Positions 1 to 9,795 of a stretch of 9,795 nucleotides of DNA are shown here, piece after piece. The DNA is from a virus. Taxonomy: Duplodnaviria > Heunggongvirae > Uroviricota > Caudoviricetes. Both the position numbers and the translations under genes were made by a program. Position 1 is the first letter of the stretch; each line of letters opens with the position of its first letter. The stretch is taken from the IMG/VR virus record IMGVR_UViG_2711768052_000007, positions 1 to 9,795 of that record; one strand, written 5' to 3'. The notes beneath the pieces were generated by a model. The model ran no database searches and was not told the origin of the DNA. It worked only from the letters and a program-made list of their open reading frames with translations.

Positions 1-564
1 TCAACGACTGCGCTTAGCGTGGCGCTCCCAGTTTTCTTGCTTCGCCTGCGCCGTTTTACGTAGTGCGACGTAACACGCCCCGCTGCCGCCATGATGCGGT
101 AGCGCAGTGCAATATGCCTGAACATCATCAAATTCGGTCAGCCAGCGCGCCACATAGCTGCGGACAATATTGGCATGCGATTTATCATCCCGTCCTTTGC
201 CATGAATAATCAGCACGTTACGCAAACCATCAGCCATGGCTTGTTGAATGAAACTGAACATCATTTTGCGGCACTCTTCCACCGGCTGGCGCAAAAGATT
301 CAGGCTCGCCTGTTGCGGATATTTACCACTGCGCAGCTTATCCAGCACCCCATGTTGCAACCCTTCCCGCCGAAACTCCAGCGGCTGACTTAGTGGGATG
401 ATGTCGAGAAATCCGGTGGTGAGGAAATTATCAAGCTGCAGCGTGTCGATACGCTGCGGCGCACGTTGGTTACGCGTTGGATGCCAGTGGACATCGGTAG
501 CACGTTTCAGCGGCTGGACATCTTCCATGGCGTCAAGAAACAGCGATTTGTCGTCAAGGTTCAT
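1..564 (-). CDS. smrA: Smr-domain protein SmrA (YdaL), probable DNA endonuclease
   Basis: Complete 187-aa ORF (ATG at 564-562, stop at 3-1). The translation matches E. coli SmrA/YdaL as I recall it, including length. SD-like GGAGGATG lies upstream at about 568-575. Confidence 0.85.
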   Translation of the reverse strand: MNLDDKSLFLDAMEDVQPLKRATDVHWHPTRNQRAPQRIDTLQLDNFLTTGFLDIIPLSQPLEFRREGLQHGVLDKLRSGKYPQQASLNLLRQPVEECRKMMFSFIQQAMADGLRNVLIIHGKGRDDKSHANIVRSYVARWLTEFDDVQAYCTALPHHGGSGACYVALRKTAQAKQENWERHAKRSR

Positions 565-1297
565 GTTACATCCTCCCGCAATTAAGAGCGCGATATGATA
601 ACCAGACCGGGTCGGTCCAACAACGTATTACCCAAAATTCCAGTAATAAGTTCCAAATATTGCCGATATTTTAAGCAAAATGCTTATGCATGATTATTCA
701 TTCACGATATTTATAATTAAATGCGCATAACTTATTGAATTTAACCAACAAACATCGCTGCAAATAACGTTAAAAATCGCAAATTAACTACACCATTAAC
801 TACACCGTTCGGTGCACTGTATGCAACAATGCGGAACAAATAGACACAAGCGACGGGCTATACCGTTATCATTTTCCGGCTATCCGCCATGAAGCTGGTG
901 GATGATCACGGATAAACCGTTATGGAAGTCCCCATATCGGCATCATGCCCACCAGCGAGATTAGTTATCTGGTTGCTGATGGGAGGCTGACGAACCTCGA
1001 TGCTAGGGTGCGCAAAACTAGTGAGACCTTTTTTCTCTGCAACAGGCCCATAATTCGCGTTTTCTTTGTCTGCCGTAAGGTGGGGGATTTTTGGCGGATC
1101 CAGCAATGGCGCGGATTTTGTGATTTTTTATAGATAGACCTCATCTATCAATCCCGTGCACACCTTCCCAAAAAAAGTTTTCGAACCTGCGGCGATGAGA
1201 ACAAGGGTAGGCGGGCGGTCCCATAAGCAATGGAGTGTAGGGATTCCGATCCCCCTGGGGGTATTAAACGCCCCACCCTATTTAAATACCGTCTTTT

Positions 1298-1339
1298 TTG
1301 TCACTGGTTGTCACTCTCCGTCACGGTATGTCACCACAA
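1298..1339. repeat. Four GTCAC-containing units phased exactly every 10 bp (candidate integrase arm-type or Xis/AlpA-type binding array)
   Basis: GTCAC occurs at 1300, 1310, 1320 and 1330 (ttGTCACtgg, ttGTCACtct, ccGTCACggt, atGTCACcac), directly 3' of the last island gene. It resembles the lambda Int arm-type consensus (A/C)AGTCACTAT, recalled from memory. Confidence 0.4.
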
Positions 1340-1340
1340 G

Positions 1341-1625
1341 TTAACGTCGTAACCGTTCCGGCTTCTTCCACTGGTAAGTAATTTTTTCTTTCTCCCGGTA
1401 CATCTCTACGCGGCGACGGTATGACAACATCTCCAGAACTCTGGTTCGTATATCGCGCATATCCACGCCGTTAAGCTCAATACCATCACGGCGCATCACC
1501 TCAGCCACTACACGCGCGTAATTTTCGGCTATCACGCTGTCCGGCTGCGTGGCCTCCTGTTTGCCTGTTGTCTGGCTGGCTCCGGTAACGCGGCGAATTA
1601 TTTTGAGCATTTCGGCTTCGGTCAT
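1341..1625 (-). CDS. Hypothetical protein (94 aa) downstream of the small-terminase-like gene
   Basis: ORF with internal ATG at 1625-1623 preceded by GGAGG with about 8 nt spacing. The longer track ORF (to 1715) has no RBS. I do not recognise a family. Confidence 0.5.
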   Translation of the reverse strand: MTEAEMLKIIRRVTGASQTTGKQEATQPDSVIAENYARVVAEVMRRDGIELNGVDMRDIRTRVLEMLSYRRRVEMYREKEKITYQWKKPERLRR

Positions 1626-1770
1626 GGTTATGGCCTCCGTGGTGATGGGAAACAATGCCGTAATTGTGGCGGGTCCTTCTTGGAAAATGAAATACCGGGG
1701 TAGCCATACGCGCAATTCTTAACTGTTTATGAAAATTTTTCGAGTTCCACTCCCGGTTTTTTTATGACCT

Positions 1771-1791
1771 AACCAATTGATTAAATTGGTT
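1771..1791. promoter_or_regulatory. Perfect 8-bp inverted repeat AACCAATT-N5-AATTGGTT (operator-like)
   Basis: Read directly from the sequence, in the 215-bp gap between the terS-like stop (1840) and the next gene start (1625). Confidence 0.3.
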
Positions 1792-1839
1792 TTAAATATC
1801 AAATCAACCGGAAGTCTGACCAGTTGAGGGAAATGATGA

Positions 1840-2301
1840 TCAGGTGTCGTTTTGCCTGATTAATTTACGCTTCTTTTTGTTTTCATTTGTGTGTTTTTTA
1901 AGGCGTTTTAATGTCAGTTCTCGCCCGATCTCAATTCCCTGCGCTCTGCCCCTAGCCTGTGCGATCTCGTCCGGTGAATAACCGTAAATTTCCAGACCTT
2001 TATTAAATTTTTTTTCGTACTCTTGTTTGTCTTCTTCTTCACCAACCATACTCAACATGATTTCACGCGAATGCATAATGCAATCAAGCGGATGAAGTTC
2101 GCCAGTCATACCCAGTTCTTTGAGTCCTTCCTGTCCTCTTACCCAAAAAAGAACATGTCCTAACTGGTAGCGCCCCGGCTTTCCTTTATCTCCTTCAATG
2201 AATGGCAAACCGCGTTTAGTCCATGCCCTGACAGTTGTCCTGTCTACTCCAAATTGATCTGCTATTTCCTGCTGGCTTAAGAAAAATTCTTTTTCACTCA
2301 T
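1840..2301 (-). CDS. Terminase small subunit-like packaging protein (Nu1-type N-terminal winged-HTH, divergent C-terminus)
   Basis: The N-terminus (LSQQEIADQFGVDRTTVRAWTKRGLPFIEGDKGKPGRY) aligns with lambda Nu1 (KKQLADIFGASIRTIQNWQEQGMPVLRGGGKGNEVLY). The track ORF begins at a TTG (2337); the ATG at 2301-2299 (MSEKEFF) matches the Nu1 N-terminus better. The gene lies immediately downstream of a cos-like site. Confidence 0.7.
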   Translation of the reverse strand: MSEKEFFLSQQEIADQFGVDRTTVRAWTKRGLPFIEGDKGKPGRYQLGHVLFWVRGQEGLKELGMTGELHPLDCIMHSREIMLSMVGEEEDKQEYEKKFNKGLEIYGYSPDEIAQARGRAQGIEIGRELTLKRLKKHTNENKKKRKLIRQNDT

Positions 2302-2379
2302 AATGTTACCAATAATTACTGGTTGAATATTAATCAAGTGGTGGTGGTGTACCCTTTCCCGGAAAGCGTCATAAATAGC

Positions 2380-2440
2380 GCTTTTTTGCGCGTCTGCCGC
2401 CCCGTAACCTTTCGGATCGCCGGAAAGGACCCGTAAAAAA
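2380..2440 (-). other. Lambda-type cos site (cosQ-proximal sequence, cosN-like 12-mer, start of cosB)
   Basis: Minus strand reads ACGGGTCCTTTCCGGCGATCCGAAAGGTTACG|GGGCGGCAGACG|CGC...GCGCTATTTATGA. The lambda genome ends and start, as I recall them, read ...ACGGGTCCTTTCCGGTGATCCGACAGGTTACG|GGGCGGCGACCT|CGCGGGTTTTCGCTATTTATGA. The cosN-like 12-mer is at 2391-2402 (plus coordinates). Confidence 0.7.
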
Positions 2441-2456
2441 GCCGGATTTCTCCGGC
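2435..2456 (-). terminator. Putative intrinsic terminator after the 137-aa gene, overlapping the cosQ-proximal region
   Basis: On the minus strand, hairpin GCCGGA-gaaa-TCCGGC is followed by TTTTTT, 7 bp after the stop at 2463. It may instead be part of cos architecture. Confidence 0.35.
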
Positions 2457-2462
2457 CTTGTC

Positions 2463-2876
2463 TCAGATGGTTTTCAGTATGCGATCGATGTCGTCGTCAT
2501 CACCCGGATTTCTTCCATCGTATTCCATGCCACCTGACACTGCTTTGGGGCTGTGCATATCCATAAAGTTTTCAAAGGCTGCAGTAAGCTCCGGCGGAAC
2601 CTTCGGGCGTTCCTGCTCTATGGTCATGTTCAGGATGTCTCTTGCCCCTTCAACATCGATACAAGGAACATTCGCCATTGCACGCAACATCGGCTGATAT
2701 TCGGCTGCTTCATGAAGCGCCATAATCGCATCAGCGCGCGGCTTGTCCTGTTCTTCCAGTTTGTTCAATCGGTGTATGGCTTCGTAGGTTGATAAACCTC
2801 TGTCAGCCATTGCCCGCGCTTCGGCCTTAAATTTACTCGCCAGCGGTAGCGCCATGATCTCTTCATTGATTGCCAT
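2463..2876 (-). CDS. Hypothetical protein (137 aa, acidic C-terminus) between the decoration gene and cos
   Basis: ORF with ATG at 2876-2874 preceded by AGGGGGGA. The track ORF extends to 2930 but that extension overlaps the upstream gene and has no RBS. Family not recognised. Confidence 0.5.
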   Translation of the reverse strand: MAINEEIMALPLASKFKAEARAMADRGLSTYEAIHRLNKLEEQDKPRADAIMALHEAAEYQPMLRAMANVPCIDVEGARDILNMTIEQERPKVPPELTAAFENFMDMHSPKAVSGGMEYDGRNPGDDDDIDRILKTI

Positions 2877-2889
2877 CGTTCCCCCCTGC

Positions 2890-3225
2890 TTATCGTGCCA
2901 GCGGCTGAACGGATACGCCAGAACCCGCAAAGGCAGCGCATTTTTTCGCGTCAGTATCGACGCTCTCGGGCCAGTTAACGACGGCGATATTGAATATCCC
3001 CGTCTTGTAACACTGTGCAGATTTTTGTTTTGCCGTGTCCAGTGGGTAGGAGGTCAGATAAATGGCCTTGCCTGACTCCTGACCGCCCCACGCCTTAAAC
3101 TCGCCGTTCTCCGTCATCATCAGCGGGGTAAGCTCGGGAATAACTCCGGCATCAGCGGCAAAGTGTACCAGCGTAGTGGAAACCTGCTGTGTACCGGACA
3201 ATAATTCAACATATGGAACGCCCAT
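2890..3225 (-). CDS. Head decoration protein (lambda gpD-like)
   Basis: 111 aa. TPLMMTENGEFKAWGG...CYKTGIFNIAVVNWPES...KKCAAFAG aligns with lambda D (TPLMLDTSSRKLVAWDG...FYKSGTFRYEDVLWPEA...KRTAFAG). ATG at 3225 is preceded by GGGGGA. Confidence 0.8.
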   Translation of the reverse strand: MGVPYVELLSGTQQVSTTLVHFAADAGVIPELTPLMMTENGEFKAWGGQESGKAIYLTSYPLDTAKQKSAQCYKTGIFNIAVVNWPESVDTDAKKCAAFAGSGVSVQPLAR

Positions 3226-3236
3226 AAAATCCCCCG

Positions 3237-4292
3237 TTAACCAATTTTTACGGTAACAAATTTGCGGATATCTGCCGGAACCGGCTGTGGTGCGCTGTGC
3301 GTCTGCACGTATTCAATCGACGGATCGCCGCCCTCAATCCAGTTTTTCGGGTAGTACATGTTTCGCGTTGCGCCAGTTCTTACCGCTTCCTGATCCATAA
3401 TCGCGCCATAGGCCACCAGTCCTTTATTGCTGGTATTACCCAGAACAAGCAAATCAGGCTCAAGGAAATATTTTTCCGTTCCGTCGCCGTCAGTGTATTT
3501 ACCGGAATAAACGATAAGGGCCAGATCGCCAAGATAGCCTTTAAAGCTCACCACTTCGCCCAGGTTTTTACACGCCAGCTCTGCGGCGGATTCTGAACCA
3601 CGGGAAAGATCGTACAGTTCACGAAATTTTTTAAAGCTGCGTAACGTGCGCCATACCTCAACGCCCATAATCATGACGTTGGCGGGGCAACCTGCCTGAT
3701 CGGTGTACAGTTCGATGTCATAAATTGGATCGTGCGTTTCCTTGTCAGCCTCTGACCACTTTTTACCTTGTCCCTGCGTAATGATGTTTTTAGTCGGGAT
3801 TTTCCAGTCGATTTCGTATCGATTTATACCTTCGCCTTCAATGATGTTTTTCCCGGTCGTGACTGCATTCACCGCCAGCCATTCCACACGCGCTTTAATG
3901 GAATTTACCTGGCGGCGCATGTTGCCCGTAATCAGGCGCATACGACGGTATGTAGGGTCGTTAAGCTGTGCTGGATCTTCACCAGCCATGCGTATGATGG
4001 TTTTTGATGGATCGATTTCGTGTTTGGGTTTCATGTAGCCAGGGCGGATAGTGCTTGTTTCGTACCCTTTATCTCGCTGAACCTGGCTACCCACCATAGG
4101 CGAACAAAACGCCGACATGGTGACTTCTTCAATATCCAGGGTATCTAACATGATGTCCTGCGTGTTGAAGGTCGCCACGTTCGGGAAAAACAGCGACGTA
4201 AACAGCGGACTAAATTTAAAATCTGGAATATCCTGGCGATTCAGATATGTAAAAAGCTGATGCGTGTTAAGCGCCTGCGCTTTGTCTGTCAT
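3237..4292 (-). CDS. Major capsid protein (lambda gpE-like)
   Basis: 351 aa with conserved blocks shared with lambda E: FKFSPLF, PGYMKPKHE, EDPAQLNDPTYRRMR, VVSFKGYLGDLALIVYSGKY, VLGNT, YPKNW, GDP, SAP. The start ATG overlaps the upstream stop (ATGA). Confidence 0.9.
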   Translation of the reverse strand: MTDKAQALNTHQLFTYLNRQDIPDFKFSPLFTSLFFPNVATFNTQDIMLDTLDIEEVTMSAFCSPMVGSQVQRDKGYETSTIRPGYMKPKHEIDPSKTIIRMAGEDPAQLNDPTYRRMRLITGNMRRQVNSIKARVEWLAVNAVTTGKNIIEGEGINRYEIDWKIPTKNIITQGQGKKWSEADKETHDPIYDIELYTDQAGCPANVMIMGVEVWRTLRSFKKFRELYDLSRGSESAAELACKNLGEVVSFKGYLGDLALIVYSGKYTDGDGTEKYFLEPDLLVLGNTSNKGLVAYGAIMDQEAVRTGATRNMYYPKNWIEGGDPSIEYVQTHSAPQPVPADIRKFVTVKIG

Positions 4293-4498
4293 TGCTCACC
4301 CCCATGAGTCTGATTCATGCCAAGCGCAGCGCGTAAATGGCTGCGTACCATCCAACCAACTGACGGCTTCACCATGCACAACGGATCAAGGCCGACTTTT
4401 TTGCCTGCTTCTGCGTTCTCCTCAAAGCGCGCATTAAGTGCCGCGATAATATCGGGGCTGATGTATACGGATACACCGCCCAGCTTCTGTGTTCCCAT
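4289..4498 (-). CDS. Hypothetical small protein (69 aa), translationally coupled to the capsid gene
   Basis: ATG at 4498-4496 is preceded by AGAGGA, and the stop overlaps the capsid ATG. The upstream part of the track ORF (to 4564) has no RBS. Confidence 0.4.
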   Translation of the reverse strand: MGTQKLGGVSVYISPDIIAALNARFEENAEAGKKVGLDPLCMVKPSVGWMVRSHLRAALGMNQTHGGEQ

Positions 4499-4550
4499 AA
4501 ATGAAATTCCTCTTTGACTAAAAAACAAACATAACGAAAAATCAGTCATG

Positions 4551-4580
4551 ATTTTAATCATCATTGCATTTTTTGCAATG
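4551..4580 (-). promoter_or_regulatory. Putative sigma70-type promoter for the head/packaging operon with an overlapping inverted repeat
   Basis: On the minus strand, -35 TTGCAA (4578-4573), 16-bp spacer, -10 TAAAAT (4556-4551). The 7-bp inverted repeat CATTGCA-N5-TGCAATG (4562-4580) overlaps the -35 and spacer. Confidence 0.3.
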
Positions 4581-4675
4581 CAATTGACTATTATTGCAAA
4601 TCATGAAAGTATAATTCCGCGGTTTTACCTTGTATCGTAGAGTTGTTAGCATCAATCACGTTAACGGCATGAAAT

Positions 4676-4709
4676 CCCCCCGGAACCTCATCCCGGGGGG
4701 ATTTTTTTT
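4676..4709 (+). terminator. Strong plus-strand intrinsic terminator
   Basis: 8-bp GC stem CCCCCCGG/CCGGGGGG (4676-4683 / 4693-4700) with a 9-nt loop, followed by A and T8 (4702-4709). Confidence 0.6.
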
Positions 4710-4713
4710 GCGC

Positions 4714-4741
4714 ACAAAAAAGCCGTGAAAAATCCCGGCTT
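4714..4741 (-). terminator. Minus-strand intrinsic terminator after the SSB-like gene
   Basis: On the minus strand, hairpin AAGCCG-N10-CGGCTT is followed by TTTTTT. It lies about 15 bp downstream of the alternative-frame TAA stop at 4758-4756. Confidence 0.45.
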
Positions 4742-4755
4742 CTGTCACTCGTTGC

Positions 4756-5122
4756 TTAAAACGGTATGTTATCCCCGTACGGATCATCATTTCCCGCCTG
4801 TTGTTTTGCCCTGTTCAGTGCGTCAGTAGCCTGGCCCTGTTGACCTTTTTTGCCGCCCGGGCGCGCCGTTCTGGCCTGTCCACTGGCTTACCTGCATGTT
4901 ACCCGCCACGCTCACAAGTTCGCCTTTCTGGTGCTTTGCCAGTGCGTCGGCCTGTCTGCCAAACGCCAGGACGGATAACCACATCGTCGCCGTTCCGTCA
5001 TCTGCCTGGCTGCACGGCAGGGGAACCGCCATACTCGCCATCGCCATTTGTGTCCCTTTGCTGGTGGTCTTTAACTGCGGGTCAGCCACCAGCCGCCCGT
5101 AAGCCGCTATCTGTGCTGTCAT
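4756..5122 (-). CDS. SSB-like single-stranded DNA-binding protein with an apparent +1 frameshift near an A6 tract
   Basis: The track ORF (4823..5122) shows an SSB-like OB-fold pattern (GRLVADPQL..., WLSVLAFGRQADALAKHQKGELVSVAGNMQVSQWTGQNG versus E. coli SSB [40 protein letters not shown]). The +1 frame downstream of the A6 run (4846-4851) continues to ...AGNDDPYGDNIPF and stops at 4758-4756. IPF is the hallmark C-terminal tip of bacterial SSBs. Confidence 0.5.
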
Positions 5123-5370
5123 GATTCCACCTCTCCGGTTTTAACATTGATGGTTGTCACCTGTTCCGCTTCGGCAATCTCCCGTTCTGTCAGCGTGGCA
5201 AAGTTTGCTGCCGCCGTGGTCATGAATGCGCTTATCAGTTCGGGGTGTGCTTTCGCGTATCCTTCCCCGGCATGGCGGTCTATCGTTCTGATTGCCACCT
5301 TTAAGGCGTGCTCTGTCATGTCTAATGCGCGATATTTTGGCGCTGTCTTATCTCTGGTTTTTCTGGTCAT
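5119..5370 (-). CDS. Hypothetical protein (83 aa) between the origin and the SSB-like gene
   Basis: ORF with ATG at 5370. Its stop overlaps the SSB-like ATG (ATGA). No family recognised. Confidence 0.45.
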   Translation of the reverse strand: MTRKTRDKTAPKYRALDMTEHALKVAIRTIDRHAGEGYAKAHPELISAFMTTAAANFATLTEREIAEAEQVTTINVKTGEVES

Positions 5371-5379
5371 TCCTCACTG

Positions 5380-5573
5380 CTCCCCACTTTTACTACCCAC
5401 TTTTTGAAATTACCCAACGTCTCCCCACTTCTTTTTTTTGTGATTCTAACGTGATGTTTTTCAATGTATTTTTTATTCCCCACTTTTTGGGGTATATACA
5501 GGTGGGAAAGTGGGGAATCGCGTTTCAATTTTGTTAAATTCCCCATACTCCCCACTTTTACTACCCACTTTTT
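5380..5573. repeat. Iteron-type origin of replication candidate
   Basis: An identical 26-bp direct repeat CTCCCCACTTTTACTACCCACTTTTT occurs at 5380-5405 and 5548-5573. The short motif TCCCCACTT occurs at 5381, 5422, 5477 and 5549, with an inverted copy AAGTGGGGA at 5508-5516. An AT-rich spacer lies at 5431-5476. The region is immediately 3' of the Rep-type gene. Confidence 0.6.
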
Positions 5574-6987
5574 ACAGTGGGCGCACGTCATCACCGTCAA
5601 TAGCAATAACGCCATCACCTTCCAGCTTGTACAGCCAGCGCCGGAAGTGTTTCATCTCATACCCCAGCTTTTTCATATCATCGCGCAACAACGGAATTGT
5701 GCATTTATCGCCGCGCTGTGTGCGTGAACGGATACAGCCCCATAGCGCGGCATGATTCTCCGTCTTGTTCCCGGCTTCCTCGATGCGCTCCAGTTCAACG
5801 GGTGGGCGCGGTTTATCCACAACCACCAGCGACGTGATTAACTCCTTGTCAGCGTCGGTAAAAAGCTCCACCACACGTAAATCGTATGCAGCCTCTTTCA
5901 GTTCCTCCGCGTCCTTCATTTTGGTGCAGGAGATAACCAGGGCTTCACTGTCTGCACCTTCACGGCGAATACGGTATTCAGCGTCCAGAGATGCACGAAA
6001 TGCACTGGAACCACGCGCCCCCTTTGTTTCATCCTTGCCGGAATGGTGAACCACCAGCACCGTGGCCCCTGTGCGGCGTTTCAGTTCGTCACATCCACGG
6101 ATAAACGCCCCCATATCCCGCGCGTCATTTTCATCATTACCGCCAAAGCAACGCGCCAGCGTATCAAGAATAATCATGCGTACCGGTTTACCCGTTTCCC
6201 GTTCAACCTGGCGGGAAGCGATGACCATTTCATCAACATCAAGCGGGACTGCCGGAAAAATCGGGCGGTTTACCAGGTACAGATTTTCCACCCGTTCATC
6301 ATTAACGATTTCCCATGCCTTGATACGGCGGGGGACACCAATGCCACCTTCACCGACAACATACATCACCGAACCATGCGCCACCCTGCGGCCTCCCCAG
6401 TGACGGCCAGTGGCAACATGACACGCCCAGGAACACGCGAGGAACGATTTATAGGAACCGCTCGCGCCGTATGTGCTGCACAATGAATTAGCCGGAATCA
6501 CGCCCTTAACGACATAATCAAGCTGTGTGTCGTACCCTGCAGATCCAATGCTCATTGGTAGCGTGGTTTTTCGCTGGCTGTATTGCTCGTCAGTAAGTAT
6601 TTCCCCGCGCTCTGCCTGTTCGCGGATCCGTTGCAGGTAGTCGTGCCAGTTCTCCAGCTTCTGGCTGTGCATTCCATCAGGGTAATAATTCGCATCCCGT
6701 ACACCTGCCGCCGCCAGCTTTTGCCCGATAGCATTAATATTTGACGGCTTGATGTGGCCTGCCTTGTACAGCCGGACACAATAGCGACCATCGTCGATGA
6801 TTTTCAGGTCTGCCAGTTCGTCAAGCTGGCTGTCTCCAAGCCATACGGGTGGCACGTTGTCGCCAGCAAGTCGCCCGTCCTGTTCCTGCCATTGTTTCGC
6901 GTGCGCCCAGGCATCACTACCCGCAAAAATAATGACTTCGGTCATTTTGTCGTGTGGCTGTTTTTTTAAGTTCGGTGCCAGTTTCAT
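5572..6987 (-). CDS. Replication initiator / helicase-type ATPase (RecA-like P-loop NTPase with C-terminal winged-helix)
   Basis: 471 aa with a Walker A-like YGASGSYKSF, then MIILDTLAR and VLVVHHSGKDETKG blocks typical of RepA/DnaB-like satellite and plasmid replication ATPases. The C-terminus looks like a DNA-binding domain. The start ATG overlaps the upstream stop (ATGA). Confidence 0.75.
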   Translation of the reverse strand: MKLAPNLKKQPHDKMTEVIIFAGSDAWAHAKQWQEQDGRLAGDNVPPVWLGDSQLDELADLKIIDDGRYCVRLYKAGHIKPSNINAIGQKLAAAGVRDANYYPDGMHSQKLENWHDYLQRIREQAERGEILTDEQYSQRKTTLPMSIGSAGYDTQLDYVVKGVIPANSLCSTYGASGSYKSFLACSWACHVATGRHWGGRRVAHGSVMYVVGEGGIGVPRRIKAWEIVNDERVENLYLVNRPIFPAVPLDVDEMVIASRQVERETGKPVRMIILDTLARCFGGNDENDARDMGAFIRGCDELKRRTGATVLVVHHSGKDETKGARGSSAFRASLDAEYRIRREGADSEALVISCTKMKDAEELKEAAYDLRVVELFTDADKELITSLVVVDKPRPPVELERIEEAGNKTENHAALWGCIRSRTQRGDKCTIPLLRDDMKKLGYEMKHFRRWLYKLEGDGVIAIDGDDVRPL

Positions 6988-7283
6988 TTTTTACCCCTGA
7001 ATGCGTTAATCATGTTTTTCATTTTCTGAATATTTGCCCGTGCCTTTGCGTTGCTGGTGGGCTGTTTGCGTGGTGTGGCCTGTATCAGTGAAAAATCACG
7101 CCGGAACTGATAAACAGGCATCACGCAGTCATAACCGTACCCATCACGGCGGTAAGTAACGCACCGTCCCGCCACGCTTTTAATCGTTACCGTGCCGCCG
7201 TAGTTATCCCGGAAAATATCGCCGGGGCGGATTTCAGGCCGAGCGGGGCCGCTGGCAGTAAAGCCAGAATTTTTCTTTTTCAT
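6984..7283 (-). CDS. Hypothetical protein (99 aa, basic C-terminal tail), translationally coupled to the rep gene
   Basis: ATG at 7283 is preceded by AGAGGA. No family recognised. Confidence 0.5.
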   Translation of the reverse strand: MKKKNSGFTASGPARPEIRPGDIFRDNYGGTVTIKSVAGRCVTYRRDGYGYDCVMPVYQFRRDFSLIQATPRKQPTSNAKARANIQKMKNMINAFRGKK

Positions 7284-7288
7284 GGTTT

Positions 7289-7498
7289 TTATTCCTCTGC
7301 GCGGGTCTTGTCGTGTATTTCCATAACCGCGTTTAATTCATCAATAACCGGGGTTAACAGAGTGCTGAAAGCAGAAAATAAATCCCCCCCCCGTTCGGCA
7401 TGAACTTCGGTTAATTTAATTAATACCGCTTTCATTTCCAGTGCCCGGTTTAATGCATTCTCAGAATGAATAAGAACATCGAAAGGGATTTTATCCAT
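7289..7498 (-). CDS. Hypothetical small helical protein (69 aa) containing a G10 homopolymer
   Basis: ATG at 7498 overlaps the upstream gene end by 8 nt. A run of 10 C (plus strand 7383-7392) lies inside the ORF. No family recognised. Confidence 0.4.
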   Translation of the reverse strand: MDKIPFDVLIHSENALNRALEMKAVLIKLTEVHAERGGDLFSAFSTLLTPVIDELNAVMEIHDKTRAEE

Positions 7499-7957
7499 GG
7501 CTTACATCCTCCGTGAATTTTCTTCTGTACCGTGCCTCTGCCACATATTCAGCATAGTCCGACGCAATAATAAGAATATCGTTGCCGGTTCCTGAATGTT
7601 CAGCGGTTCCAATTAAAAAACATGCGGCCTTTATCAGGTCATTAACAGCCAGCAACGCATCGCCTGTATCATCCGGTGCGCCATCAAATTCCTGTTTCAG
7701 GGCATTAAAACGATCATCACGCATAACCCCCCCCCATTTTCACAATCAGCAATCAGGATGGCTTTGGCCTCATTCAGTGCCATATCAGCGGTAAGCTGTG
7801 CGTAGGCCAGCGAATGGGGGATTATTGCCCCTGTATACTCCGGCTCTCTGGTAATGTGTTTTTCTGCGGTTGCTGCCGTGCATGAAATATCAATCAGCGC
7901 GTGCATCAGCGTAGTGAGCGCGGCGGCTGCTGCGTCCGGACGTGGGTTATTGCACAT
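7491..7957 (-). pseudogene. Hypothetical protein split into two ORFs at a G9 homopolymer (frameshifted or phase-variable)
   Basis: ATG at 7957-7955 has a strong RBS (AGGAGGT, 5-nt spacer). The frame runs to a stop at 7699-7697 just after the G9 tract (plus-strand C9 at 7727-7735). The 77-aa ORF 7491..7724 continues in the +1 frame, and one extra G would fuse both into about 157 aa. Confidence 0.4.
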
Positions 7958-8249
7958 GGCGCACCTCCTGACGAATACGGGCGGCGAATACAGCGACACA
8001 ACCGGACGGGCAACGGTTACGCGCTTCGCGTTCTGTCCATGCGGTGACGTGGATGATTTGAGATTCTCCGGCACTCAGTGCCAGAAAACGCCACACAAAG
8101 GCCGTTTGTGTGTGCGCTAGGCGTGGGGTATGCTGTGTTCCAGCCATAATCGTTACCTCGTTTAACGGTTTGGTTAGAAGCCCCGTTACTGCTCCAACAG
8201 TGCGGGGCTTCGTCGTTTCAATTGCTGAATTGCATGTATCAGCCCTTGT

Positions 8250-8316
8250 GGTATTCAGATTACATTTTGGTGAATACCATTTCAAGTCTTTTTTGGTATT
8301 CACTTTTGTATTACAC
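8250..8316. promoter_or_regulatory. Operator-like repeats GGTATTCA(C) upstream of the ribbon-helix-helix gene
   Basis: GGTATTCA at 8250-8257; a perfect 9-bp inverted pair GTGAATACC (8270-8278) and GGTATTCAC (8295-8303); a degenerate copy GTATTACAC at 8308-8316. A candidate -10 TATTAAT lies at 8327-8333. Confidence 0.35.
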
Positions 8317-8346
8317 TGCATCCCGTTATTAATCGGAGGTGCAAAC

Positions 8347-8652
8347 ATGTCCACGAGTTCTGTTAACAATAAGTCACAGCAACTGAATGCCAGATTTCCA
8401 CATGAAGTAGTGAGTGGCATTGAGGCATCCCTACAGCCAGGGGAAACTAAAGCGAATTTTATAGTTACGGCTGTACGCGGTGAGATCGCCCGCCGCCAGG
8501 CAGAAGGAAGCGGAGAAAATCCCCTGGTTTCTTCGCTCGATGCACTGGCGCAGGTGGAAAAAATCGGAGTCAAAGCAGCCGAGGAGATCGGGCAACTCGT
8601 CACCGTCGCGCGTGAAGAACTCCAGCGCCGCAAGGCCAAAGAGCAGGAATAG
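8347..8652 (+). CDS. Ribbon-helix-helix (Arc/CopG-like) DNA-binding protein, putative island regulator
   Basis: 101 aa with a strong RBS (GGAGGTG, 5-nt spacer). The N-terminus (QQLNARFPHEVVSGIEASL...ANFIVTAVRGEIARR) fits the beta-strand plus two-helix RHH pattern. It is the only convincing plus-strand gene in the island. Confidence 0.55.
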   Translation: MSTSSVNNKSQQLNARFPHEVVSGIEASLQPGETKANFIVTAVRGEIARRQAEGSGENPLVSSLDALAQVEKIGVKAAEEIGQLVTVAREELQRRKAKEQE

Positions 8653-8656
8653 CCCC

Positions 8657-8675
8657 ACCGGAATTTTTTTCCGGT
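8657..8675. terminator. Hairpin between convergent genes (possible bidirectional terminator)
   Basis: ACCGGAA-TTTTT-TTCCGGT lies 5 bp after the RHH stop and abuts an out-of-frame minus-strand TAA. There is no long U-tract on either side. Confidence 0.3.
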
Positions 8676-9143
8676 TACGCTTTGCCCACCAGCCGCAAAT
8701 GTGGCATTGTTGGTGATGCGTTCAAGTTTGATTTGCCGTAATACCCACTGGCGACCCTTTGCGGTCGCCTTTGTTTTGCCTGTTATCCGGCAATTGTGGC
8801 GCTTCGCCACACGGTTGATATAATCCCACTGCTCAGATTCATTTTTTGCGCAGTAGGTTAATTGTTCGCAAGGGCGCTCCGGCAACGGGGCGCTTTTTGT
8901 TTTTATTAGTTTGTAGAAAACTGACTCAGAGATAATGCTCATATTCTGATTGCCGTCAGGGGGGTAAGTTAAATTTACTCCCTTTTCATCAAGCATCTGC
9001 AACGCTCTGGCGTTAATAATATTGGTTTCACTCCCGCCAATAAGGCCGGAAATAACCGGAATAATTTCAGCGAAATTTTGCAGATTCTGGTTTTCAGGCC
9101 GAACGAAGCCCCGCCCCTGTACAGGCGTATATCCAGTATTCAT
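8675..9143 (-). CDS. Hypothetical protein with a weak Bro-N/Ant-like motif; C-terminal frame unresolved
   Basis: ATG at 9143. The first 150 residues or so look protein-like, and ISESVFYKLIKTKSAP resembles the SESGLYxLIxRSRKPEA motif of Bro-N/Ant-type proteins. The in-frame ORF has no stop until 7947 and runs antisense through the RHH gene; a TAA in the +1 frame at 8677-8675 is the likely true end. Confidence 0.4.
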
Positions 9144-9195
9144 GGTTAAATCTCTGTATTAGTGGATGGGTGGCGGCTGTGTGCCGCCAGCCTGA

Positions 9196-9384
9196 TTAGT
9201 GAACTGCCTCGCGGCTGTCCTTCCATGCCAGAACTTCGGATAAAGACCAGCCAACGGAACGACCACCGAGTTTACGCCGTGATGGGAATTGTCCAGTCTT
9301 CTCCAGGCGATACCGACATGAGCGGCTCAGGCCTGTAAGTTGCTGACATTCTTTTTCACGTATAAAGCGATCTGTGCTTAACAC
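9196..9384 (-). CDS. alpA: AlpA-family (Xis-like HTH) transcriptional regulator
   Basis: The C-terminal 62 aa (VLSTDRFIREKECQQLTGLSRSCRYRLEKTGQFPSRRKLGGRSVGWSLSEVLAWKDSRE) matches the AlpA pattern. A GTG start at 9384-9382 is preceded by AAGGGGGA. The track ORF's upstream 36 codons are low-complexity and lack an RBS. Confidence 0.7.
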   Translation of the reverse strand: MLSTDRFIREKECQQLTGLSRSCRYRLEKTGQFPSRRKLGGRSVGWSLSEVLAWKDSREAVH

Positions 9385-9680
9385 AATTCCCCCTTTGTTG
9401 TTTCTTAAAGAGTCATTGGGTGGATTATTGGGTTGGGTTGTGTCGGATTGTGTCAGGGTGTTTATGGAATGGCAAACACTGGTGGCGGTCATTTTACAGA
9501 AGTGGGGGTAGTGAGAATAAAAATCCTTTTAATTCATTATGATGTAAAGGCATAAAATTCTGTTTTTACGCCTTTTTTACATGTTTTTAAGAGTGATTCG
9601 CCAATGTACAAAAAGCCAGTAAAACGACTGAAAATCAACTTTTTAGGGTGTCAGTCAGATGATAATCAAGTTTGTTCCAG

Positions 9681-9730
9681 ATTGTTCGCCGTTGTTCGTC
9701 GTGGTGTCTCGTTGTTTCACGTTGTGTCCG
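9681..9730. repeat. Five degenerate direct repeats phased every 10 bp (candidate recombination or regulatory protein binding array)
   Basis: attgttcgcc / gttgttcgtc / gtggtgtctc / gttgtttcac / gttgtgtccg, in non-coding DNA about 300 bp to the right of alpA. All three minus-strand frames hit stops within 60 nt of the window end, so no integrase 3' end is present. Confidence 0.35.
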
Positions 9731-9795
9731 TTCTAAAAAATCGCAAAAAAAATTATATTTCTCTGGCTATTGGCAGTGTGGTTACGTTTTCGTGA

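Follow-up and report, generated by a model that had tools for sequence, protein, structure and literature searches.

Two runs of nine G residues lie within the early operon (Icd-like gene to helicase gene) of a capsid-encoding, PICI-like phage satellite of Escherichia, and by sequence comparison they appear to be real, heritable and hypermutable, since their lengths differ between elements that are otherwise identical. The reading we prefer, with a probability of roughly 60%, is that both are genuine heritable hypermutable homopolymers, the first of which (tract 1) would serve as coding sequence of one small gene (ORF-A) and as the ribosome-binding site of the next (ORF-B) with three tolerated length states, while the second (tract 2) would toggle a third small gene (ORF-C). 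The window referred to below is the whole stretch of DNA analyzed, 9,795 nt in length (IMG/VR record IMGVR_UViG_2711768052_000007, positions 1 to 9,795). In the G9/G9 state of the window ORF-A, ORF-B and ORF-C are all intact.

The two G runs and the satellite early operon

The window contains exactly two G/C runs longer than 6 nt, both of them 9 nt in length (Table 1). In 200 dinucleotide-preserving shuffles the mean was 0.07 such runs per window, and two or more were obtained in 1 of the 200. Related loci totaling 601 kb had G/C runs of 7 nt or more 116 and 15 times at these two sites and five times elsewhere, and C runs of this length on the coding strand were absent from the same 601 kb. 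Two of the longest G runs of these elements are found in a single operon of a widespread satellite family, and both are polymorphic across hundreds of public assemblies.

A first-pass annotation of the window, made from the DNA sequence by itself, had listed plus-strand C runs of 9 nt (7727-7735) and 10 nt (7383-7392). The former is exactly as described; the latter is one base shorter (7384-7392), position 7383 being T. With nine G residues the coding strand reads CGG GGG GGG GAT (Arg-Gly-Gly-Asp), not the Gly-Gly-Gly translation given earlier, and the one-base miscount explains why that translation disagreed with the Gly-Gly-Asp of the supplied track. Tract 1 had also been described as splitting a gene into frames of 125 and 77 aa, from which one extra G would restore an open reading frame of about 157 aa. 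Both open reading frames exist mechanically (7697-8074, with a GTG start, and 7491-7724), but the real start of the upstream gene is the ATG at 7957, as annotated by PGAP in a relative, and its product has 86 aa. One extra G does give a single open reading frame, but of 155 aa, and this protein is matched exactly in one public assembly. The description of one gene split by the tract is misleading, because the fused form (about 27%) is one of three common states, the commonest being the split form with its 8-nt overlap.

Table 1. Positions of the G runs, small genes and neighboring features in the window
Feature	Position	Strand	Remarks
Major capsid (major head protein) gene	4292 to 3237	-	
Iterons	5361-5575		adjoining the replication helicase gene
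RepA-family helicase (AAA_25) gene	5572..6987	-	satellite replication protein; last in the translationally linked chain
DUF4222 gene	6984..7283	-	start 5 nt past ORF-C stop; 4-nt overlap with helicase start
ORF-C, 69 aa	7289..7498	-	accessory gene carrying tract 2; phrog_2196
Tract 2, G9 (plus-strand C9)	7384..7392	coding strand -	mid-ORF-C, codons Arg36-Gly-Gly-Asp39, in frame
ORF-B, 77 aa	7491..7724	-	own ATG at 7722-7724; phrog_24341
Conserved junction, about 70 nt	7686..7756	-	CTGATTGCTGATTGTGAAAAT-Gn-TTATGCGTGATGATCGTTTTAAT.CCCTGAAACAGGAATTT; between shuffled ORF-A and ORF-B modules
ORF-A, G9 state (A', 86 aa)	7697..7957	-	ATG at 7957 behind AGGAGG; stop 27 nt inside ORF-B
Tract 1, G9 (plus-strand C9)	7727..7735	coding strand -	three Gly codons (Gly-Gly-Gly) at the ORF-A 3' end; 2 nt ahead of the ORF-B ATG
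Icd-like gene, 66 aa	7947..8147	-	first of the overlapping chain; named from annotation of relatives
YlcI/YnfO-like gene	between AlpA and Icd-like genes	+	
AlpA gene	9196-9492	-	

The early operon is read from the minus strand throughout, in the order Icd-like, ORF-A, ORF-B, ORF-C, DUF4222 and RepA helicase, and its open reading frames form an unbroken chain in which neighbors overlap by 4-11 nt or are separated by a 5-nt gap. The Icd-like stop and the ORF-A start overlap by 11 nt, and there is an 8-nt overlap between the ORF-B stop and the ORF-C start (ATGGATAA). Of the genes that mark a capsid-forming PICI-type element, AlpA, the AAA_25 helicase and the major head protein are encoded in the window, together with the iterons, and the rest are found in near-identical relatives: these E. 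coli elements carry an integrase gene adjoining AlpA as well as SSB, head-decoration and small-terminase genes. From the genes of the window and the gene content of these relatives, we assign the element to the capsid-encoding PICI-type satellites. In a protein-based scan of species-representative genomes pattern matches were obtained, none of which was confirmed, and a degenerate DNA pattern for the ORF-B start matched only Shigella flexneri and Escherichia ruysiae among such genomes. The outcome of these scans indicates that the A/B module is essentially confined to Escherichia and Shigella.

The PHROGs collection holds three families for the locus, i.e., phrog_5146 (ORF-A), phrog_24341 (ORF-B) and phrog_2512 (the fusion, 154 aa); the ORF-A product of the window (A') matches both phrog_5146 and phrog_2512. 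ORF-A, ORF-B and ORF-C have no match in Pfam, PADLOC or PDB, and their PHROGs matches are families of unknown function. An AlphaFold2 model of the fused form, with a low mean pLDDT of 53, predicts a pair of helical hairpins, with the Gly run in the disordered linker between them. Scans for promoters and terminators around the tracts gave nothing above shuffle expectation, and a tRNA scan of the junction was empty.

Length variation of the tracts among related elements

Tract 1 was surveyed at the DNA level in IMG/VR and a metagenome collection by means of a pattern anchored on exact 12- and 13-nt flanks, which yielded 139 de-duplicated loci; the exact-flank requirement biases the survey towards close relatives, a bias that a protein-based search lessens but does not remove. 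The most frequent length was G8 (58 of the 139 loci), followed by G7 (32), G9 (28), G10 (5), G4 (3) and G11 (2), and the run was interrupted at 11 loci (GGGGGTGG, GGGGTGGG, GGGGTTGG, G8TGG, GGGGAG7 or G10AG). Among distinct alleles, 101 of 112 have no interruption. In about 140 Escherichia elements G7, G8 and G9 make up 23%, 42% and 20%, respectively, and much the same spectrum is seen whether the contigs come from isolates (IMG/VR) or from metagenomes, most of the latter being SPAdes short-read assemblies. The first-pass annotation had named slipped-strand variation as one reading of the tracts and had proposed a comparison with related elements. Relatives do differ in length at both tracts (G4-G12 at tract 1 and G5-G10 at tract 2), in some cases with identical flanks, which supports variation of this kind at the population level.

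Tract 1 starts past codon 74 of ORF-A, and in the in-silico frames the protein either ends with one of two short tails (GGGYA or GGGLCVMIVLMP, each followed by the stop codon) or continues into ORF-B. The G8 frame, found at about 49% of loci, gives an ORF-A of 79 aa that ends at the TGA 7717-7719 within the junction, and this TGA overlaps the ORF-B ATG (ATGCGTGA). The G7/G10 frame, at about 27% of loci, gives an A-B fusion of 154/155 aa; the G9 frame of the window, at about 24%, gives the 86-aa form ending 27 nt inside ORF-B. All of the predicted products (ORF-A of 79, 86 and 154/155 aa; ORF-C of 69 versus 47-52 aa) are present in public protein sets. Annotation pipelines accordingly call the A/B locus in three ways, and may flag the open reading frames as frameshifted or drop them. 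In comparisons of PICI early genes the A/B and C calls should be treated as allelic states, not as differing gene content.

The pace of change was estimated from pairs of elements. Tract 1 differs in length in 34% of pairs whose 470-nt flanks are identical and in 85% of pairs with one or two flank differences, versus a random expectation of 73%, from which it follows that the length of tract 1 is randomized before a single substitution accrues in 470 nt. Eight flank haplotypes carry more than one tract 1 length. An exact look-up of the window's own ORF-A haplotype returned the G9 form in 24 contigs, the G8 form in eight and the G10 fusion in one. In the 2020S05-013 series, a clinical or laboratory clone, the G7 fused state is present in four of four genomes, a result that bears on G7, at which switching is then not extremely fast, and not on G9. 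With 24 contigs sharing the G9 of the window and G7 kept throughout the clone series, switching is fast on an evolutionary but not on an epidemiological scale.

The tract lengths of the window itself are reproducible. Over 6099 nt the window matches a contig of GCA_001268205.1 with 100% identity, and the gap-free G9/G9 combination also occurs in three other NCBI drafts, one ENA megahit contig and one SPAdes metagenome contig. The same state in at least six independent assemblies marks it as an allele and not as an assembly slip.

ORF-C is found in only a subset of related elements. Of 14 distinct contexts in relatives, 8 have tract 2 out of frame, and the out-of-frame alleles lead to products of 47-52 aa. 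For the exact ORF-C haplotype of the window, 62 contigs carry the full-length gene and 48 of 110 are out of frame (16 with G8 and 32 with G10). No start codon lies past this run, so that a Shine-Dalgarno (SD) rationale does not apply to tract 2, which resembles either a classical ON/OFF tract or the fragile point of a dispensable gene.

Ancestry of ORF-A and ORF-B and the candidate Shine-Dalgarno role of tract 1

An exhaustive profile search for relatives of ORF-A and ORF-B among 1.8 billion representatives showed that the distant relatives are mostly stand-alone proteins, either A-like (70-93 aa) or B-like (69-78 aa, aligned from residue 1), and several of these homologues have no Gly run at all. 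This points to two separate genes as the ancestral arrangement. The ORF-A core has a dN/dS ratio of 0.25-0.40 and ORF-B one of 0.24, and when ORF-B is divided by tract 1 frame the values are 0.23, 0.19 and 0.22; A and B are under purifying selection in every frame. A pseudogene, in the sense of a single gene broken by a frameshift, was considered for the locus and rejected, the dN/dS being 0.19-0.40 in all frames and the homologues being separate. The A and B modules are freely shuffled (distance correlation 0.17), and the whole 70-nt junction between them is a diversity minimum, with values of 0.00-0.03 versus 0.2-0.5.

Tract 1 is the only SD-like element upstream of ORF-B, and the spacer between it and the ATG is TT. 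The computed pairing energy of the G run with the anti-SD sequence at the 3' end of 16S rRNA is -10.5 to -12.7 kcal/mol, compared with -14 kcal/mol for the AGGAGG of ORF-A. The ORF-B ATG together with an SD-like run is kept in 142 of 142 distinct contexts, which were collected by a protein-based search blind to upstream sequence. In a second class of these contexts the upstream gene is an unrelated ORF of 142 aa, which likewise terminates in a G run (mostly G6), with TAAAC and the same ATGCGTGA overlap coming next. In the first class, to which the window belongs, 32 loci have G7 and none has G6 or G5. The sole short allele is G4, found in three genomes in the fused frame, and it fits the SD reading because a fused ORF-B needs no SD of its own. 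Third-codon diversity inside tract 1 is 0-0.07, versus a mean of 0.31 at the four-fold sites of ORF-B. Tract 1 thus probably has a dual use, supplying Gly codons to ORF-A and a putative ribosome-binding site to ORF-B, although its low diversity may in part come from recombinational homogenization of the 70-nt junction and not from selection on the run.

The mechanism we favor can be outlined as follows. ORF-B, ancestrally a separate gene, would normally be coupled to ORF-A through the ATGCGTGA start/stop overlap, and a workable SD spacing with a 2-nt gap would need about seven or more G residues. Because this required length reaches the range of frequent slippage, tract 1 would be prone to replication slippage, and gain or loss of one G would move the locus among the G8, G9 and G7/G10 states (79 aa, 86 aa and fusion of 154/155 aa, respectively). 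All three states could be tolerated and coexist, since each would still deliver the ORF-A core and ORF-B. At tract 2 a change in length would toggle ORF-C between the 69-aa form and the truncated form of 47-52 aa. We infer the slippage mechanism, the SD role, the expression of the products and the tolerance of three states from these comparisons. On such a reading the locus would offer a simple and testable example of one homopolymer serving as coding segment, putative ribosome-binding site and mutational switch at the same time, upstream of replication genes.

Known repeat systems and alternative explanations

Two types of repeat-mediated phase variation, C-terminal and translational, appear to be the closest known kinds for tract 1 and tract 2, respectively. 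Structurally, the locus combines an uninterrupted mutable repeat in or next to a coding sequence with inter-strain polymorphism and a change of frame, the structural part of what defines an SSR phase-variable locus. In C-terminal phase variation, two of the frames differ in the C-terminus that they encode, whereas the third joins the gene to the one downstream, as described in Helicobacter canadensis (Snyder et al. 2010, PMC2823697) and for NGK_1211/NGK_1212 of N. gonorrhoeae (Zelewska et al. 2016, PMC5320596). Tract 1 is similar in its poly-G at the 3' end of a gene, its two short C-termini plus a fusion frame, and its length differences between strains. It differs in the E. coli host, in its location in a phage satellite and in a gene not concerned with surface structure or modification, and in that the length variation is known between elements only; moreover, the run lies 2 nt from the downstream start and is the sole SD-like element there, so that the downstream protein is possible in every frame. 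Classical translational ON/OFF phase variation involves intragenic poly-G/C, e.g., Neisseria pilC and hpuA and the Campylobacter contingency genes. Tract 2 resembles these in being an uninterrupted G7-G10 run in a coding sequence, in or out of frame in about half of otherwise identical alleles, but it is located in the middle of the gene instead of near the 5' end, and the product is an accessory protein of 69 aa.

Simple-sequence contingency loci are usually considered scarce in E. coli. A literature search found no paper that ties PICIs or E. coli satellites to homopolymer variation, and a match to "poly-G" in an ST131 paper concerned read trimming only. If the tracts are selected switches, they would be the first SSR contingency system to be reported from phage satellites of E. 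coli. A selected contingency switch, in which tract 1 would act as a three-state C-terminal switch and tract 2 as an ON/OFF switch and which would diversify clonal satellites, for example by altering translational coupling along the chain from Icd to the helicase and with it replication or interference with helper phages, is a possibility that we rate as rather doubtful. Several observations speak for selection of this kind: the uninterrupted run persists across lineages whose flanking synonymous sites are heavily diverged, all frames are well represented (49%, 27% and 24%), tract 2 is OFF in about half of the alleles with an otherwise intact downstream sequence, and the chain of overlapping or abutting genes ends in the replication helicase. 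The same architecture has been classed as phase variation in H. canadensis and N. gonorrhoeae (PMC2823697, PMC5320596). However, unimodal lengths centered on G8 are also expected from a neutral stepwise process around an SD-constrained length, and the stability seen in the clone series and in the lineage of the window contrasts with switching at a high rate in mismatch-repair-proficient E. coli. Nor would tract 1 turn anything off, because ORF-B can be delivered in every frame.

A more elaborate form of selection is unlikely in our view, namely that both runs are selected switches which, through stochastic gain or loss of a G, re-wire the coupling of the chain Icd-A-B-C-DUF4222-helicase and toggle A and B between separate and fused forms, so that satellites with differing replication or interference settings would coexist in one clonal host population and bet-hedge against differing helper phages. 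Overlaps of the ATGnnTGA type are typical of translationally coupled gene pairs. The A/B pair in its modal G8 state is like them in that the ORF-A TGA overlaps the ORF-B ATG, and unlike them in that the geometry of the overlap is polymorphic, owing to the hypermutable run immediately upstream.

Under programmed recoding, slippage of RNA polymerase or -1/+1 frameshifting would yield A, A' and the fusion in a set ratio from one and the same allele. Programmed frameshift and slippage sites are known from phages and IS elements, e.g., lambda G/GT, and from dnaX. Tract 1 shares with such sites a slippery homopolymer at the junction of two open reading frames from which a fusion is possible; the run and its surroundings are kept at the nucleotide level, the G9 frame places ORF-B at -1 relative to ORF-A, where the fusion would result from a -1 shift on G GGG GGG, and fusions are evidently viable, being common alleles. 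Programmed sites, however, are fixed in length, whereas tract 1 varies from G4 to G12 and the required shift changes with it, and the fusion also arises from a change in DNA length. A stimulatory RNA structure was not found: the fold z-score was 0.79, an equally good or better fold was reached by 153 of 200 shuffles, and Rfam gave no match. Heptamers of G alone work poorly as -1 sites in E. coli, and the transcriptional slippage documented in this organism occurs mainly at A or T runs, both of which count against recoding. With the length not fixed and no stimulatory structure found, we consider programmed recoding very unlikely.

Gene decay, in which an ancestral 154-aa gene (and ORF-C likewise) would be undergoing inactivation by frameshifts at fragile homopolymers, had been raised in the first-pass annotation and now appears highly improbable. 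A fused form of 154/155 aa does exist, the family phrog_2512 has 154 aa, and about half of the ORF-C alleles are truncated; for ORF-C alone, ongoing loss is possible. The distant homologues, on the other hand, keep A and B mostly separate, both genes have a dN/dS of about 0.2-0.4 that does not change between split and fused alleles, with purifying selection in all three frames, and ORF-B has retained its own ATG and an SD-like G run throughout the 142 contexts.

An error in homopolymer length from sequencing or assembly, whether in the window (as the first-pass annotation had suggested) or across the public data, is hardly credible: 454, Nanopore and older PacBio platforms are prone to errors at homopolymers of 8-10 nt, most records leave the platform unstated and one complete genome has an odd -2 state at tract 2, but G9/G9 is reproduced exactly in the independent assemblies listed above, megahit and SPAdes short-read assemblies included, short-read metagenome contigs show the same length spectrum as isolate genomes, and single states are borne by tens of contigs each.

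The junction at tract 1 and the partners of ORF-B

Around tract 1, the G run at the 3' end of ORF-A, comparison of the window with related loci gave a sharp diversity minimum of 0.00-0.03 over approximately 70 nt, and the ORF-A and ORF-B sequences on either side showed a diversity of 0.2-0.5. A-type and B-type modules re-assort almost freely across this junction (distance correlation 0.17), which looks like a conserved recombination joint flanked by mosaic modules.

In class 2 elements (L147 from Escherichia ruysiae, and loci L160-L224), an unrelated ORF of about 142 aa with the C-terminal end ...GYQVIQGGKHA is found upstream of ORF-B. This ORF carries its own G run (G6 in most loci, G7, G9, and G10 also being present), and the ATGCGTGA overlap is retained, the same as in class 1, where ORF-A precedes ORF-B. 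In some database entries the ORF-B part lies C-terminally in a protein that is larger or of another kind: in protein P0210 (477 aa) the match covers positions 355-476, and protein P0214 (167 aa) has a class 2 upstream ORF fused to B. Frame fusions at G runs may thus also involve upstream partners other than ORF-A.

Tract state and gene annotation

In the complete genome of E. coli P393-F10 (locus L001, positions 3090-3299), tract 2 in the middle of ORF-C is G7, i.e., the in-frame length minus two G, and no gene was called there by PGAP; the apparent gene content in RefSeq annotations therefore shifts with the length state of tract 2. The 398-aa mechanical ORF matches an annotated gene in relatives only over its last 66 codons (from the ATG at 8147), and the remainder, part of which is antisense to a YlcI/YnfO-like gene, is probably spurious.

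Features located in the window
Feature	Position	Strand	Remark
Mechanical ORF, 398 aa	7947-9143	minus	ends as Icd-like gene
YlcI/YnfO-like gene, 101 aa	about 8347-8652	plus
Tract 1 junction	7686-7756
Unbroken six-gene chain	5572-8147	minus	Icd-like, ORF-A, ORF-B, ORF-C, DUF4222, helicase
Direct repeats containing CCCCACTTTT(T)	5361-5575		
Perfect inverted repeat, 12-nt	5475-5518

Gene chain and repeats at the helicase gene

The genes of the chain are joined by start/stop overlaps of 11, 28, 8, and 4 nt and one 5-nt gap, the 28-nt overlap of the window state being 8 nt in the G8 state of tract 1. This unbroken arrangement suggests translational coupling along the whole chain, from the Icd-like gene to the replication protein. 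Directly downstream of the RepA-family helicase gene begins a repeat array, which contains three copies of a 19-mer with CCCCACTTTT(T), spaced 83 and 85 nt apart, a 45-nt repeat pair 168 nt apart, and the 12-nt inverted repeat. These repeats look like iterons of the satellite replication origin.
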